A stretch of 64,000 nucleotides of DNA from Turneriella sp. (lineage in GTDB: Bacteria; Spirochaetota; Leptospiria; Turneriellales; Turneriellaceae): contig CBDIID010000003.1 in assembly GCA_965279515.1 (NCBI GenBank), forward strand, positions 1,920,001-1,984,000, given 5' to 3'. Position numbers: made by a program. This document shows, in pieces, positions 18,001 through 24,000 of the stretch. The stretch's first letter is position 1. Each line of letters starts with the position of its first letter.

Positions 18001-21000
18001 AATTTTCTGATTCCGTACTCGCTACAATATTGACCTCGGCGTGCTTTTTCGCTTCTTTGTACGCCTTTTGCGTCCAGGCGCCGGTCTGGATGAGATCGAT
18101 CTTTTTGCCGGGCAGCGCAAGATTCATCGGCACCATCGTGAACTGCAGGCTGGCGCCACCCTGAACCAGAATGATCGAATAATCATCAGGTACCGAAAGC
18201 GTCTTCTTGATGCCATCAATAGCACGGGCAAGCACAGCTTCGAATTCTTTCGAGCGGTGCGACATCTCCATCACCGACATGCCAGTGCCGGCAAAATTCA
18301 GGAATTCTTCCTGAGCCTTCTTGAGAACAGGTAAGGGAATCGCCGCCGGGCCGGCGTTGAAGTTGTGGATACGGTGCGTGAACATGCGTCCAAAATAGAG
18401 AGCGAAACAGGGGGTCGAGCAGGAAGAAAGGAACAGCCCCGAAAGGGTAACTCCACCAGTCAGTACGTCATCAGCCAAGGTCGCGGCCGAAACGATACCC
18501 CTGGCACCTTCAGGAACCGATCGTGCTCCCCAATTTTCAGTGCCGGGTATGTGATGACAAAGCCAGGACACACAGAATTTACTTTAATTTGCGTTCTCAG
18601 AGCTCCCTTACGATTTTGACTGCCAGGCCATTCAATGCTACCTTTGTTAAGGCATAGACCGGTACTCAGCTGGGGTGTGGGGATAATCCAAAAACAGGAT
18701 CTGTAAAGAGCCTGCTACACTGGAGACATTCACTACGCGTCCCGAAGAACTTTTTTAAGGTAGGAAAACATGGCAACGATAAGCCACTATGCACCAAAGA
18801 GATTCGTATCAAAGACATCACCGGCAAACTTAAAATCCGGTTCTAATGCGGCTTTTCCCGCATCAAAATAACCCCCGGCATTATTGATGATTGTATCCAA
18901 ATGATCAAACCTGCCGCTAAAATGTGAGATGAAGTTCTCTATACGGGAAAGGTCGACAACATCCAACGGATGCGTTTTGCCAATTCCGCCATCTTTGCCC
19001 CATACGGGAAAATTGAAATTATTTAAGCGTGAGTCAAAATTTTTGCAGACCAATCTTGTACAGCTCAGTCTCTTTTAAGGTGCCCATCAGATATAACTGC
19101 GTCCAACCTAAGCGCACAATTTCCAGCGCAATTAATTCTGCTCTCTCGCGGCGTTTCCAATATCCATCCATTGCTTCCAAAAACTCGGTGGCCGAAACCC
19201 GCCCTTGTGCTACGCGGGATTTTTCACGAGACAGGATGCGGCTGTATTCTATTAATTCAGTGACTAACGTTTCTGCGTGTTCCTTAGATGTCTTCAGGCG
19301 GAGCTTGACATCGTTTAGCTGGATTTTGGCGGCACGACGAGCATCCACCAACTGTTGTCGCTTTTCCTCATAGGCTTCTGCCTTCATTTGCCTACGCGTA
19401 ATCTGTGTGCCGCCATCGAGGATACGCCATCGAGCACCTATGGATGCCTGGAACCAATCCTCAGGTGTGAATTGCCGTGCTCCATAATGTGTATAATTGC
19501 CACGGGCATAAATCTCCGGAAGTGATTCCAGAAGAATCCCGTCTCGCTCTGCTTCCAGTGCCGCCATGAATGTCTCAAGTGATTTGAGATCGGGACGATT
19601 TGCGATATCATTTTCATGAACTTCAGGCGGAAGTGCCTTTTCACCAGTGAGTGGCGTTCTTGGGCCATCGGAAGCAGTGAGCCGACCTAAATCTTCCTCA
19701 CAGAGTCTTCGTGCATCGCCAATGGTGTCCAGTCCATTGCGCGCTTCCGCTGTTTTCATCGCAACTTTTGCCTGATCAATTTCGCGCGAACGCCCGGAGC
19801 GGGCGAGACGCCGGAGCTCTACGGTGAGCGATTCGAGATTTTTTACGCGCTCCCTGGCGATTTTCTGCCGCTCACCGAGCTCGGCGCAATCGTAGAATCG
19901 GGATAGTGCCATGTAGATCGCACTCATCGATTCCCATTCAGCCATAAGTGCCGCAGCTCGTTCGCGGCGCGCAGCGGCCGGGATTTTCGACAGAACGCTG
20001 TCGGAGGCCCAAAGAGTCTGGTAGACTTCTACGCCCAGTTGGCCATAGTTCTGCCTGCCATAGGGGAACTGCCCAAAGGGAGTTTGCAGAAAAAAGTCAC
20101 GATCCCGAAGGATGTATTCACCTCCGGCTGTTATTTTAGGTCCCCAAACACCCAAAATTTCGGTATTCTTCCCTGCGCTAGCGATCGCGGCGCGGTGCCA
20201 TGCCGCTTTTGCCGAGGGGGCATCTGCTGCCCGAACCAGCACTTCAGCGGTGGTGATGGGGGGAACATCAACAGCCCTCAAGGGATTCATGGCAACCGCA
20301 AATAGTGCTACTGTAGCGATGACTTCCATCCGTATTTTTTTATCCTTCAATTTTGCATAGAGCCAGGGCACAATGAATAATGTAAAGAGCGTCGAAACTC
20401 CGAGCCCCGACATCATCGCCCACGCAAATGGGGGCCAAAGTGTCGAGTCGGTAAACGTGAGTGGCACCATGCCCAGAATCGTTGAGCCACTCGTCAGCAA
20501 GATCGGACGCAGGCGCTCTCGTATACCGATACGTACGGCAGCCTCTCTGCTTTTGCCCTCCGCCTGCGCGGATTTAAAACGATCTATGAGTAAAATCCCG
20601 TTGTTTACCACAATACCAATCAAAGCAAAAAGCGCCAGCAGCGCCATGAAGCCGAATGGTTTGCGCCCAATGGCGAGGCCTGGCAAAACACCCAATGCGG
20701 CTGTGGGCACACAGGTCAGGATAATGAGTGTAAGTTTGAGCGAATTGAACTCCCAGATCAGGATCGCAATCAGGATAATCATCGCGAGCGGCATAGCGGC
20801 CAGAATCGCGCCATTTGCTTTCAGTGATTCGCCCACCTCGCCGCCGATTTCATACCGAGCCCCGGACGGCAGGGGATGAGTTTTTATATATTCTTTTGCA
20901 TGAGAGAGCAGGTGAGCTGCGCTCAGGGTACCATTCGTTTCCGCCAATACACGCACGACGTTCTCGCGATCCCGGCGATGTAGAATGCCCGTGCCGTGCT

Positions 21001-24000
21001 TCTCTGAAAAAACTGCAGTGTCCGCGATGGTGATCGCGTGGTCTGGATTCTGCCCAACCACGGCGCGTTTCAATATCGTCGGGGTTGTTTTTTCCGCCTC
21101 ATTGTAAGCGACTATGATCGGTAGGGTTTCCGTATCGGTGCGGAAAAAACCGGCTGGAATACCCCGGGTTGCCTGCAAAGCCGCCAAAGCGAGGTCATTG
21201 CGTGTCAGTCCATTTTCCGCGAGTACCCGATCGCGGGGATTCAATCTAAGCTCGCGCGAAAAACCTTCCGCATCGTGACGCACGGTTCCCGCACCCGAAA
21301 TAGCAGAAAGCGATGATACCATCATGTCAGCGTATGGAAGAATATCCGGCCCCAGGAGACGAATCTCCACCGGCGCCGGAATCGGTGGGCCTTGCTCCAG
21401 TGAGCGGACGATGATGCGCGGCTGCCCTGTCAGTGCAAGTTCGCCGATTTCGCGCCGCAAATTCGTATGGCTCGACACCGCGGTAGTCATCACCAATATT
21501 TGCGCCAGATGCGGCGCATTGGGTTGCTGGTTAAGATTGTAATAAAATCGCGGAGTCGAGCGGCCAATGAACGAAGCATATCCGTTGACAAATTTGGAGT
21601 CCCCAAGTCGGGCTTCGATGGCATCGACAGCCTTTCGGGTGCGCGAGAGCGCGGTACCTTCCGGATACAGTATCTCTATGACGAGCTGCTGCCGGTCCGC
21701 TGAGGGGAAAAATTTTTGGCCGATGGTGAATGCTGAAAGCACGGCAACGATGATAAGTGTGCCGATGCCAAAAACAATGTGGTGTGAGGCGCCAGTGGCG
21801 ATAGAAGAAATCCATGTGGATACTCTGTCAAGAAATGGCCATTCACGGGTCATACCACGTTTGAGGCCCCAGGCAGCGAGCGTGGGCGTCAGATAAACCG
21901 CTGCAAGCCAGCTCACGCTGAGCGTCGTGATAGCGATAGCAGGTATAGCAAACGTAAACTCTGAGGTCGTGCCCTTGGCCAAGAGCATCGGTAGAAACGA
22001 AGCAACCGTTGTGAGCGTCGAAGAAAGTAATGGAACCGCGAACATCGAAACCGTTTTTGTTGCGGCAACCATTCGTGGCACGCCGCGGTCGATCTGCTCT
22101 TGTACACTTTCTGCCACGACAATAATGTTATCAATCAAGAGACCCAGTGACATAACAAAGGCTGCTATCGAAATCTGCTGCAAGACACCACCTACAATGG
22201 AATTCAGGGCCAAGGCAATAAGACTGATAAGCGGGAGCATCAGGGTGACCACCAGGCCGACGCGGATCCCCATGGTGATGAGCATCATTGCCCCGAGAAT
22301 GATCATACTTTCGAGCAGTGAGACCGCAAGTTCATTGAGGCGAGAGCGCACAAAAGCAGGTTGTGAATTAATGATCTCAATATCCACGCCTCCTTTCGCT
22401 TCAAATTTACCGATGAGTACGGCAATATCGTCGCCAAAACGTACCAGGTCGATCTCCTGTCGGGCTACGATACCGAGAGCTGACGCAGGTTTCCCCTTCC
22501 AGCGCATTTCTTGCGTGGCTGGCCTTCGCACAGTCTCATCTACCTGTGAAATGGATTTAAGAATGATCGATCCCCCGTTACGCGCTGTGAGAGTAAAATT
22601 GCGAATATCATCCATGGCTTCGAAACCATTCACTGTCTTCAGATTTATTTTATCTCCACCAACGTCGATGCTGCCAGTGCCGAGGCGCTGATTCGCTGCG
22701 AGTACCTGCCCTATCACCTGCGGGCTAGTCAGGCCTGACGCCGCGAGCGCATTGCGATCAAAGGTCAATGTTACCTGTCGGCCTTCGTCTCCTATGTTCG
22801 TGACCGCCGAGACATTTCTGATTTTTAACAGTTCAGTTTCAAGATCCACCAAAGCACGGTGGCGTGCCGCATCCGGGCCTGTCAGGGCAATGAGGATCGC
22901 TTCCTGGTCTAATGCCTTGCGGTTGAGCTGCGGCTTCACCACACCCTGTGGAAAACGCGATTCCGCGCGGCGCAAGGCTGCTTCAACGTCGTCCCATTCG
23001 CGTGTTATCGCCGCGTCAGCAGAGATGGCTCCTTTAAGCTCCACGCGGAAAAAAGCAAATTCAGAACGGATGAGTACATCGAGATGTTCGATACCAGTTA
23101 CTGCACTGAACTCCTTTTCTACTTCGCGGACGACATATTTATTCATTTCCACGGGCGACGCACCCGGATAGATAATATTAATTGTGCCGAAGCGTGGTTT
23201 AAGTCTTGGATCTTCTTCTTTCGCTACGGTGAACCATGAAACAAATCCATAGATGGCGAGAGCACCACCCAGAAACCAAAAGAAACGGGCTCGGCCGGTA
23301 ATTGCTGAACTTGCATTCATATTTTCTCCTTATGGCACGGCAAGAAATGCTCGGCCTCGTAAGGCCTGCAACAAAGTAAACGTTGCGAACGAACCATAAA
23401 TTAAGGCGAAGGCCAATGTGAGCCAGATATTTTTTAGAAGGTAGAAAGAAGCCAGAGGAATAATCTGTAGTGCGTGCATACCGAAGAAATGAGCGACCCG
23501 GCCATCACCAAACTCTAAGCTCCAGCCGAAGAATCTCATACCCTGACCGCCATCTTCGCCGCCAATAGTATGCTTTAGCTTTGAACCCATAACGAAGCCC
23601 TGAAAGGAAAAAATGATGAAGATGATGAGACCGAAGCGTATTGCCCAGAGATAATGCAGCGGTAATTTTAAATCTGATGAAGATAAAAAAATCACTGCCA
23701 TGTACGTTGTCATCATTGTCGCAATTGCCGCTGCAAGGGCCATAAGGGCATAGAGCGCGGCGTACATAGGTGTACTCAGGTTGAAATGGGATGCTTCCCC
23801 GCGCGCAGCCTGAACCGCAATATAGCCGAGATCAAATCCTAATGTTACGATGGTTACGAAGTTAAAAAGTCCTGTGTTCCATTTTCCGCCGAGGTAGCCG
23901 CTGTACCAGCTAACCGTCAACGCGTAGATTCCGATGGACAGACTAAACTTTATGGGCTTAAACCATGCATTTACACCACCAACCTGGATGTGCGTAAGAA

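Follow-up and report, generated by a model that had tools for sequence, protein, structure and literature searches.

A single Turneriella gene encodes an RND permease and a TolC-type channel as a candidate signal peptidase I-cleaved polyprotein

The canonical tripartite pumps AcrAB-TolC, MexAB-OprM and CmeABC are built on the same two folds that we describe here within one gene of a Turneriella sp.; unlike these systems, the present locus has one gene instead of two, an internal rather than an N-terminal signal, no adaptor gene, and Asn at the positions of AcrB D408 and K940. The closest solved relatives of its transporter half are the permeases of TriABC-OpmH and MexJK-OprM/OpmH; in contrast to the present locus, these systems include a separate channel gene and either one or two full adaptors (PMC4338810). 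Among spirochaetes, Borrelia burgdorferi BesABC is an RND pump whose adaptor is devoid of the alpha-hairpin and for which direct contact between pump and channel has been proposed (PMC3807786 and PMC2279261); besA, besB and besC are separate genes, unlike this fusion. Bacteroidota CusA/CzcA-TolC proteins (~1,440-1,480 aa) have the same order and the same kind of joint as here, and our literature search found no paper treating them as fusions, nor any describing an RND fused to an outer-membrane factor (OMF). In the cytochrome b-c1 precursor FbcH of Bradyrhizobium japonicum, a polytopic membrane protein and a second protein are connected by an internal signal peptide that can be cleaved. Both FbcH products stay at the inner membrane, unlike the present case, in which one product would have to reach the outer membrane.

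The window, as we call the whole 64,000-nucleotide stretch analysed, carries at 19034..23320 on the minus strand a single CDS of 1,428 codons (1,428 aa) with an ATG start and zero internal stops, comprising an RND permease, an internal signal peptide and an outer-membrane factor. The one-frame fusion proposed in the first-pass annotation was thus confirmed by the ORF check, together with Pfam and open frames in relatives. The frame across the joint is open in 19 of 121 genomes of the class, that is, in 18 besides this one, as had been claimed for other Leptospiria, and a further 33 fused protein clusters of 1,397-1,538 aa occur among the 120 matches listed.

The gene lies at the end of a run of minus-strand genes, a probable operon whose first member encodes an SRPBCC (Polyketide_cyc2) protein (25966..26532), followed by an MBL-fold metallo-hydrolase (24912..25964), an SDR oxidoreductase (24097..24915) and a 256-aa protein (23330..24100). 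The latter is a multi-pass membrane protein that gives no Pfam or NCBIfam match, and its Atlas look-alikes are hypothetical proteins; it is not an adaptor. Facing the operon is a sigma-70-like promoter match (9 of 12 positions; 26553..26581, minus strand), in a region where such matches are not above chance (11 versus 7.8 +/- 3.0 in shuffles); a terminator scan was likewise at chance level. Over the -35 lies a perfect 7-1-7 palindrome, GTAGACA-C-TGTCTAC (26568..26582), whose 13-nt core is unique in the genome. In the intergenic regions of related loci the palindrome recurs in identical or similar form. It is probably the operator of the divergent TetR regulator (TetR_N and TetR_C_33; 26673..27320, plus strand), a family that also adjoins the fused gene in related loci. 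GC content is 0.527 in the gene and 0.526 in the window, with no clear sign of recent transfer. In a plasmid collection, none of 753 matching records covers 80% of the fused protein.

The permease occupies residues 1-990 (20351..23320, minus strand), as defined by Pfam, hydropathy and homology. Pfam ACR_tran spans residues 13-991 (model positions 11-1020 of 1021, 387.7 bits), and the half has the architecture of the AcrB/AcrD/AcrF family of the RND superfamily, with 12 TM helices, two repeats and two large periplasmic domains. Hydropathy at a cut-off of 1.5 finds 11 of the RND helices, of which the last spans 966-984. The remaining one, TM11, scores below the cut-off and is assigned by homology; together these bear out the full 12-helix transporter reported earlier. 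The nearest solved relatives are Pseudomonas aeruginosa TriC (6vej, E 1.4e-106) and MexK (E 3e-97), AcrB being far more distant (about E 1e-28). The fused protein misses all NCBIfam RND cut-offs, and it stands apart from the HME (CusA/CzcA) group both by score (TIGR00914, 163.9 bits versus a cut-off of 701) and by its separate tree branch. By analogy with TriC and MexK, its cargo would likely be hydrophobic or amphiphilic toxic compounds. TM4 D397-N398 and TM10 N906, R936 and T943 are invariant in 34 of 34 homologues. When mapped onto the HAE-1 proton relay (D407, D408, K940, R971, T978), a correspondence that we take from the familiar AcrB motif context and from the TriC alignment, D397, R936 and T943 are retained, whereas all 34 have N398 and N906 in place of D408 and K940. 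At the equivalent places TriC differs from this family: its TM4 carries D-D rather than D-N, and its TM10 R rather than N. In AcrB, replacing relay residues such as D408 or K940 abolishes export, according to PMC8277102. Since the two Asn are common to the whole subfamily, unfused members with full adaptors included, energy coupling presumably differs in this subfamily.

The channel half comprises residues 1017-1428 (19034..20272, minus strand; given before as ~1,020-1,428), and TolC alignment, structure model and Foldseek uphold a complete TolC/OprM/CmeC fold. It aligns end to end with residues 3-410 of mature TolC, and its monomer model (pLDDT 88.9) retrieves CmeC (4mt4, E 4.5e-15, TMq 0.79) and TolC (1ek9, TMq 0.80), with TMq 0.79-0.83 over the ten best matches. 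The two OEP repeats found by Pfam each comprise two beta-strands and long alpha-barrel helices, as in TolC/OprM-type OMFs (modelled strands E43-51/E73-86 and E250-260/E268-278; helices H87-155 and H286-352), and acidic residues E1379 and E1382 stand at the two aspartate-ring positions. The N-terminal lipobox Cys that marks the lipoprotein OMFs OprM, CmeC and CusC is absent from the joint; a Cys falls within residues 1009-1023 in 2 of 34 homologues, both times inside the hydrophobic core.

Between the two halves, hydropathy reveals an extra short hydrophobic segment past TM12, at 996-1014. A basic cytoplasmic linker (residues 991-999; 20324..20350, minus strand), with a net charge of +3 counted from K990, would serve as the n-region of an internal signal peptide, followed by an h-region of 12 hydrophobic residues (V1000-M1011; 20288..20323, minus strand) and a c-region, N-P-L-R-A (1012-1016; 20273..20287, minus strand), that conforms to the -3/-1 rule. 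The hydrophobic stretch noted earlier as ~14 residues is therefore present, its length now refined to a 12-residue core within 15 uncharged residues, while the reported Ala-x-Ala-like motif reads in fact L-R-A (1014-1016). A simple rule-based scan accepts the charge, core and L-R-A as a Sec/signal peptidase I site and predicts a cut after A1016, between window positions 20273 and 20272; the enzyme itself is present in the genome, where three loci reach the signal peptidase I cut-off. Across 34 aligned fusions, a short hydrophobic stretch follows TM12 in every case, the linker is net positive in 31 and Ala lies in the -1 window in 32 (strict A-x-A in only 15). This positive/hydrophobic/Ala pattern is kept although the linker changes fast, with 15-35% identity to two same-genus relatives compared with 59-68% for the domains.

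The first-pass annotation had recognised no adaptor beside the gene. This holds at the locus itself, where a search of all frames of window positions 18001-28000 found none encoded, but fails for the class, in which 12 of 22 fusion-bearing genomes carry a shrunken adaptor directly upstream, missed by Pfam in 11 of the 12. These mini-adaptors are 200-220 aa genes with the MP and beta-barrel domains of an MFP and a lipoprotein anchor, at an invariant Cys20. Their profile matches TriA/B, 4l8j and BesA, and a model (pLDDT 87.6) matches AcrA and BesA at E about 1e-5, with TMq of only 0.32-0.40. L081, L082 and L090 have lost only the hairpin, as in BesA, whereas the adaptors of L079, L080 and L083-L089 have lost the hairpin and also the lipoyl domain that BesA keeps; in L001 the mini-adaptor is on the plus strand. 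Full adaptors stand beside fusions outside the spirochaetes (L008 is grouped with these in the tree, though its contig holds only the C-terminal part). Total absence is confined to the single clade that holds the present gene (SH-aLRT support 100 for RND, 98 for channel). None of the 10 genomes of this clade (two of which are just 83% and 88% complete) yielded a cognate adaptor, the best mini-adaptor profile score being <=26 bits (left-out true members score 65-98 bits, an outside member 42 bits); the cognate periplasmic adaptor that defines a tripartite pump is thus missing. These comparisons indicate that the adaptor shrank stepwise in this spirochaete lineage and then vanished from the locus.

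As a plausible mechanism, the gene would be expressed as the last of a TetR-repressed operon, yielding one precursor. Judging by sequence and homology, its first 990 residues would form a 12-helix exporter of the TriC/MexK type in the inner membrane, with their end on the cytoplasmic side. The basic linker and short core would serve as an internal Sec signal by which the last ~410 residues pass into the periplasm. Signal peptidase I would cut after L-R-A1016, freeing a TolC-type protomer to trimerise in the outer membrane and leaving the signal stub on the permease. Cutting one precursor into pump and channel would therefore ensure 1:1 production, matching a 3:3 assembly. An mfp-rnd-omf operon in which the rnd and omf genes overlapped may have given rise to the fusion itself when the stop between the two was lost, with the signal peptide of the channel kept; in unfused relatives the genes indeed overlap, by TGATG after AGGAGG in L011 and by ATGA in L009. 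In Leptospiria, the cognate adaptor would have lost its hairpin, then its lipoyl domain, and in this clade the gene would have been deleted; the pump would therefore either dock directly on the channel or use an unrelated adaptor in trans. We regard this account as a whole, from cleaved polyprotein and operon to fusion origin and adaptor loss, as probable.

The two outcomes for docking are held with less confidence. As a sub-case of the above, the cleaved products may work in an ordinary tripartite pump with a non-cognate adaptor borrowed from elsewhere, which is possible, though we would not favour it, and in which case the adaptor-free novelty would fall away. A report that no pump is active without an adaptor (PMC8277102) favours this reading, and MexJK, the system of the nearest solved relative, recruits OprM or OpmH in trans (PMC4338810). 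The genome does hold six other adaptor-like genes, and its four other RND genes without an adjacent adaptor suggest that sharing may be routine; however, none of the six is an orphan, as each has an RND or ABC operon of its own, none belongs to the cognate family (<=24 bits), and the lineage shed the hairpin and lipoyl domains, the parts bridging pump and channel, before it lost the gene. Only tentatively, and with more doubt than belief, do we suggest a one-gene trans-envelope pump, in which the cleaved RND and TolC-type trimers would dock tip to tip without any adaptor as the end point of stepwise reduction; a search for clade-specific residues at the tips of the channel and in the docking domain of the permease gave nothing beyond long-branch expectation.

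It is unlikely that the halves are uncoupled after cleavage, the permease exporting only to the periplasm while the channel serves other transporters or leaks. The missing cognate adaptor throughout the clade would fit such a division, as would a channel half that is broken in 2 of the 22 fusion-bearing class genomes (G105, G045), and some RND families (NFE) act as single components (PMC8277102). Yet the RND and channel trees are congruent, the two halves thus co-descending, and dN/dS values of 0.05 (RND) and 0.10 (channel) in the adaptor-less pair L077/L078 indicate that both are under purifying selection in this clade too; furthermore, no unfused clade member appears among the 120 matches listed.

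Two separate proteins could also come from one frame with no proteolysis, the channel being initiated internally and the read-through form incidental. An in-frame ATG (M998; 20327..20329, minus strand) stands just ahead of the h-region, with the nearest AGGA 13 nt upstream, and some in-frame start occurs in the linker of 17 of 28 fused loci (ATG in 8). We nevertheless judge this improbable: the other 11 loci, same-genus L071 among them, have no ATG, GTG or TTG there, start positions are not conserved, and an SD-like motif 4-14 nt upstream accompanies a start in only 2 of the 28. Initiation at M998 would moreover leave an n-region without a basic residue, no minus-strand promoter match lies near the joint, and 19 of 30 Bacteroidota joints have no ATG.

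Very improbable, in our view, is a precursor that stays uncut, its extra helix a permanent signal-anchor and its channel covalently tethered to the pump in a single trans-envelope chain. Such a link could replace the lost adaptor, and the scarcity of strict A-x-A would suit it, but fusions are also seen in loci that retain full adaptors, and the geometry is prohibitive. The 12-residue tether between the h-region and the first channel helix could reach ~46 A at most (the median across homologues is 14 residues, with <=15 in 21 of 34), whereas an uncut assembly would need about 120 A, because the RND headpiece measures 70 A (PMC3807786) and the equatorial H1 lies midway along a 100 A barrel (PMC8277102). 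At 10-12 residues, the h-region is on the short side for a stable helix, and its conservation is low (0.37, compared with 0.78-0.80 for TM4, TM10 and TM12). In addition, Gln follows the signal peptidase I site in Bacteroidota (PMC5837995), and [AGS]-Q comes right after the internal h-region in 30 of 30 Bacteroidota CusA-TolC fusions, these being mutually related best-scoring matches from a separately fused family, versus 131 of 647 control windows (20%). Tether geometry, the unconserved internal start and this Gln rule at an independent fusion support the internal signal peptide and likely cleavage first put forward for this gene, and a polyprotein cut by signal peptidase I is the best reading of the sequences. 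An assembly error that dropped the stop between two genes is vanishingly unlikely, since, despite the indel errors mentioned earlier for this assembly and unfused neighbours one base away from fusion (the TGATG overlap), the frame is open in the 18 other class genomes and 33 clusters, the fusion is conserved across genera and phyla, and contigs from four of four sequencing runs (of one study, possibly the source of the assembly and hence not independent) span 18500-24500 in one piece with zero differences.

Far from being rare or lineage-special, the fusion is widespread. Among Bacteroidota CusA-type pumps it is common, 36 of 101 sampled genomes having it end to end, and it is also present in Acidobacteriota, Myxococcota and Gammaproteobacteria; five homologues carry the automatic JGI name 'AcrB/outer membrane protein TolC'. 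The Bacteroidota fusions belong to the heavy-metal (HME) branch and are of independent origin, because they lie far away in both the RND and the channel trees, and RND-channel fusion has at least three origins. The distinctive part is the adaptor series, not the fusion itself. If the proposed cleavage is true, it would be routine for bacteria to derive one inner- and one outer-membrane protein from a shared precursor; more than a third of the Bacteroidota genomes sampled would be affected, and a channel would lie hidden in genes whose annotation names a permease only. The adaptor series would offer natural reagents for the long argument over whether RND and channel touch directly or through adaptor hairpins only; BesA raised this question, and the mini-adaptors and the adaptor-less clade allow it to be tested with just one gene.

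The gene at window positions 19034-23320 (minus strand) is a single open frame of 1,428 codons, in which the Pfam ACR_tran domain covers residues 13-991 (model positions 11-1020 of 1021) and is followed, in the channel half, by two OEP repeats. Of the 12 permease helices, hydropathy detects 11, plus one extra short segment; TM11 lies below the cut-off and is assigned by homology. A profile of 20 channel halves matches mature TolC end to end (3-410), and the structure model of the channel half (pLDDT 88.9) finds CmeC, OprN, CusC, VceC, and SilC as its best structural matches, with TolC lower in the list (TMq 0.79 against 4mt4, CmeC, and 0.80 against 1ek9, TolC). 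The fusion stretch is unaltered in contigs of all four sequencing runs, which come from one study that is possibly the source of the assembly. The first-pass annotation had proposed that one gene encodes a complete RND permease and a complete TolC-type channel (OMF), and the single frame, the completeness of both domains, and their conservation bear this out: the pump-channel fusion is real. The closest solved structures of the permease half are TriC and MexK, the P. aeruginosa RND permeases, an analogy that suggests hydrophobic toxic compounds as cargo. Across the fusion permeases, D397-N398 and N906 are invariant, and they presumably stand opposite D407-D408 and K940 of AcrB. AcrB requires D407-D408 and K940 (PMC8277102). 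The Asn replacements are subfamily-wide and unconnected with the fusion.

RND-OMF fusions are widespread and auto-annotated but apparently unstudied. Among the 120 listed of 552 protein matches, 34, including the query, are 1,397-1,538 aa long; among the matches listed, 28 of these 34 carry a precomputed OEP domain, and five bear the JGI name 'AcrB/outer membrane protein TolC'. A full-text search of open-access main texts found no description of such a fusion, nor is there any mention in the portions examined of PMC8277102, PMC4827864, PMC10434189, PMC11960050, PMC4462101, PMC6281302, PMC3924187, and PMC11435864. Within Leptospiria, with four candidates at most scored per genome, an intact fused frame is present in 19 of 121 genomes, the channel half is broken in two (G105, G045), and the fusion is split over contigs in one (G064). 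The broken copies lie in loci L074 (G105) and L089 (G045), with a Mutator-family transposase directly 3' in L074. At least seven of the 68 named genome loci listed are fused; those listed come from Leptospirales, Acidobacteriota, Myxococcota, and Salinisphaera, with one more carrying an Enterobacteriaceae label. The same fusion is present in CusA-type pumps of Bacteroidota (CusA/CzcA-TolC fusions, L099:1489-5799, plus strand, and L111-L140); the L099 protein, which has 1,436 aa and a joint resembling a signal, is matched end to end in 36 of 101 Bacteroidota genomes, its own counted.

In a FastTree tree of the RND half and a separate tree of the channel half, a 30-member clade that includes the Turneriella gene (support 97) forms one group, a few fusions intermixed with an unfused Nannocystaceae channel (locus L011) form a second, and the Bacteroidota CusA fusions a third. 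These groupings imply no fewer than three events, either origins or origins coupled with fission. The RND and OMF genes of L011 are unfused around 5850, where AGGAGG precedes the stop/start overlap TGATG, and those of L009 overlap by ATGA around 10045; such overlapping genes are likely the starting state before fusion. Other members of the RND subfamily, of Halomonas/Marinobacter type (L002, L005, L010, L015, L017-L019, L023-L025, L028-L034), have no OMF match in the flanking sequence retrieved, and those scanned keep their adaptor. Unusually long OMF-like proteins of 768-912 aa, much extended at the N-terminus (SH3 in L040), lie upstream of adaptor-RND pairs (L039:3523-5874, L040:3040-5778, L036, L041-L043, L045-L047, L051, L052, L056, L057, L059, L062).

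The joint runs from the end of TM12 through a basic linker (net +3), the hydrophobic stretch V1000-M1011, and N-P-L-R-A to the channel, which begins at V1017. A short hydrophobic stretch behind TM12 is found in 34 of 34 fusions, the linker is net-positive in 31, and Ala lies within the -1 window in 32, with a strict A-x-A in only 15; no lipobox is present at the Turneriella joint. The joint is weakly conserved, with column identity of 0.33-0.37 against 0.78-0.80 in TM4, TM10, and TM12, and it is the fastest-diverging part between relatives; signal peptides behave in this way. An uncut chain would be unable to assemble in the known way, because in the Turneriella gene the h-region and the first channel helix are only 12 residues apart (at most ~46 Å), whereas that helix lies ~120 Å from the inner membrane, i.e., midway along a 100 Å barrel (PMC8277102) above a pump headpiece of 70 Å (PMC3807786). 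Across the 34 fusions this tether has a median of 14 residues and is 15 or fewer in 21. In Turneriella, M998, an in-frame ATG with AGGA 13 nt upstream, would allow separate translation of the channel from a start within the linker, which counts against a cleavage-only reading; internal initiation is not conserved across fused loci, however, as 11 of 28 have no in-frame start codon in the linker at all, and in two a start is preceded, at 4-14 nt, by an SD-like motif (within 20 nt, in four). Bacteroidota signal peptidase I products begin with Gln in a mean of 71%, against typically <20% in spirochaetes (PMC5837995). In the Bacteroidota fusions, [AGS]-Q directly follows the internal h-region in 30 of 30 versus 131 of 647 control windows, these 30 being the best-scoring, mutually related matches of a fusion lineage different from that of the Turneriella gene. 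Signal peptidase I genes are present in the Turneriella genome. On this indirect evidence we consider it probable that the fusion precursor is cleaved at its internal signal. As a plausible mechanism, the 12 permease helices would insert into the inner membrane, the internal signal would export the channel half, and cleavage after A1016 would free the channel to form an outer-membrane trimer, so that pump and channel would be supplied 1:1 from one precursor. Bradyrhizobium FbcH is a precedent for a bacterial precursor cleaved internally.

At five non-spirochaete fused loci a full adaptor lies upstream, and a sixth (L008) shows a C-terminal adaptor part at the contig end. Of the 22 Leptospiria genomes that carry the fusion, 12 have a short lipoprotein gene directly upstream, as does L001; a profile of the subfamily's adaptors found these proteins, 11 of the 12, as well as that of L001, having no Pfam match. 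The adaptors of L081, L082, and L090 (268-280 aa) miss only the alpha-hairpin, as does BesA of the Borrelia burgdorferi pump BesABC; further hairpin-less adaptors are listed in Supplemental Fig. 2 of PMC3807786, perhaps with Leptospira among them, which would affect how new those of Leptospiria are. The mini-adaptors of L079 (5811-6470, minus), L080 (788-1447, plus), L083 (5745-6356, minus), and L084-L089, 201-225 aa as called, lack both hairpin and lipoyl domain, retain only the MP and beta-barrel domains, and are smaller than BesA; that of L001 (about 6390-7000, plus) is similar in size to these nine. Mini-adaptor profile and structure model match TriA/B, AcrA, and BesA, with low TM-scores. 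No adaptor is found at the fusion locus in the remaining 10 of 22 genomes, Turneriella included; at the Turneriella locus the first-pass annotation had likewise recognized none. TetR is directly upstream in eight of these ten, and small enzyme genes intervene in Turneriella and G016. In trees of either half the adaptor-less loci group as a single clade (SH-aLRT 100 for the RND half and 98 for the channel half, in quick trees of 9 and 7 rows). Genome-wide, the mini-adaptor profile, which scores 65-98 bits for left-out members and 42 bits for an outside member in G226, reaches at most 26 bits in all ten adaptor-less genomes, two of them only 83% and 88% complete. At the fusion locus, then, Leptospiria show adaptor reduction and, in this one clade, adaptor loss. 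In the adaptor-less clade the channel half is under purifying selection (dN/dS 0.10, against 0.05 for the RND half, in the single pair L077/L078; pairs with the Turneriella gene are saturated). Four more Turneriella RND genes lack a neighboring adaptor (G000:C3 597223, 1594905, 2076569, 2235478), one of them directly behind an OMF gene, and a tandem pair of CusA-like RND genes, nearly identical at their N-termini, follows one adaptor and one OMF (G000:C3 2254572-2261738).

The fusion gene is the last in a run of SRPBCC, MBL hydrolase, SDR, membrane protein, and fusion, with TetR divergent. The 256-aa multi-pass membrane protein (window 23330-24100, minus strand) has no Pfam/NCBIfam family, and its Atlas look-alikes are hypothetical, mostly from Bacteroidota where known. 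A perfect palindrome that resembles a TetR operator (window 26568-26582) lies across the -35 of a promoter-like match. Its 13-nt core occurs once in the Turneriella genome. Of 20 intergenic regions examined at related loci, 9 share the pattern of this core and several more have looser palindromes; the palindrome is kept from Leptospiria to Salinisphaera. We infer that TetR represses the operon. Two 18-base stretches (window 18861-18878 and 19766-19783) match a single high-depth contig of 3,037 bases, in each of the four runs; these matches are probably due to chance or to another organism.

How the adaptor-less pump works admits several readings. It may borrow an adaptor encoded elsewhere: recruitment of partners in trans is possible (PMC4338810), and the Turneriella genome holds six adaptor-like genes, each inside its own operon. 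Adaptor-like proteins of Turneriella are mostly short (263-330 aa) and hairpin-poor in appearance. Pump and channel may also act uncoupled. Direct, adaptor-free docking of the pump on the channel is possible but doubtful, since adaptors are reported as mandatory for RND pumps (PMC8277102), partners can be recruited in trans, and four other Turneriella RND genes likewise have no adaptor next to them; direct pump-channel contact has been proposed for BesABC (PMC3807786; PMC2279261). With the Turneriella copy at the end of a series of adaptor reduction, the question of direct contact becomes testable.
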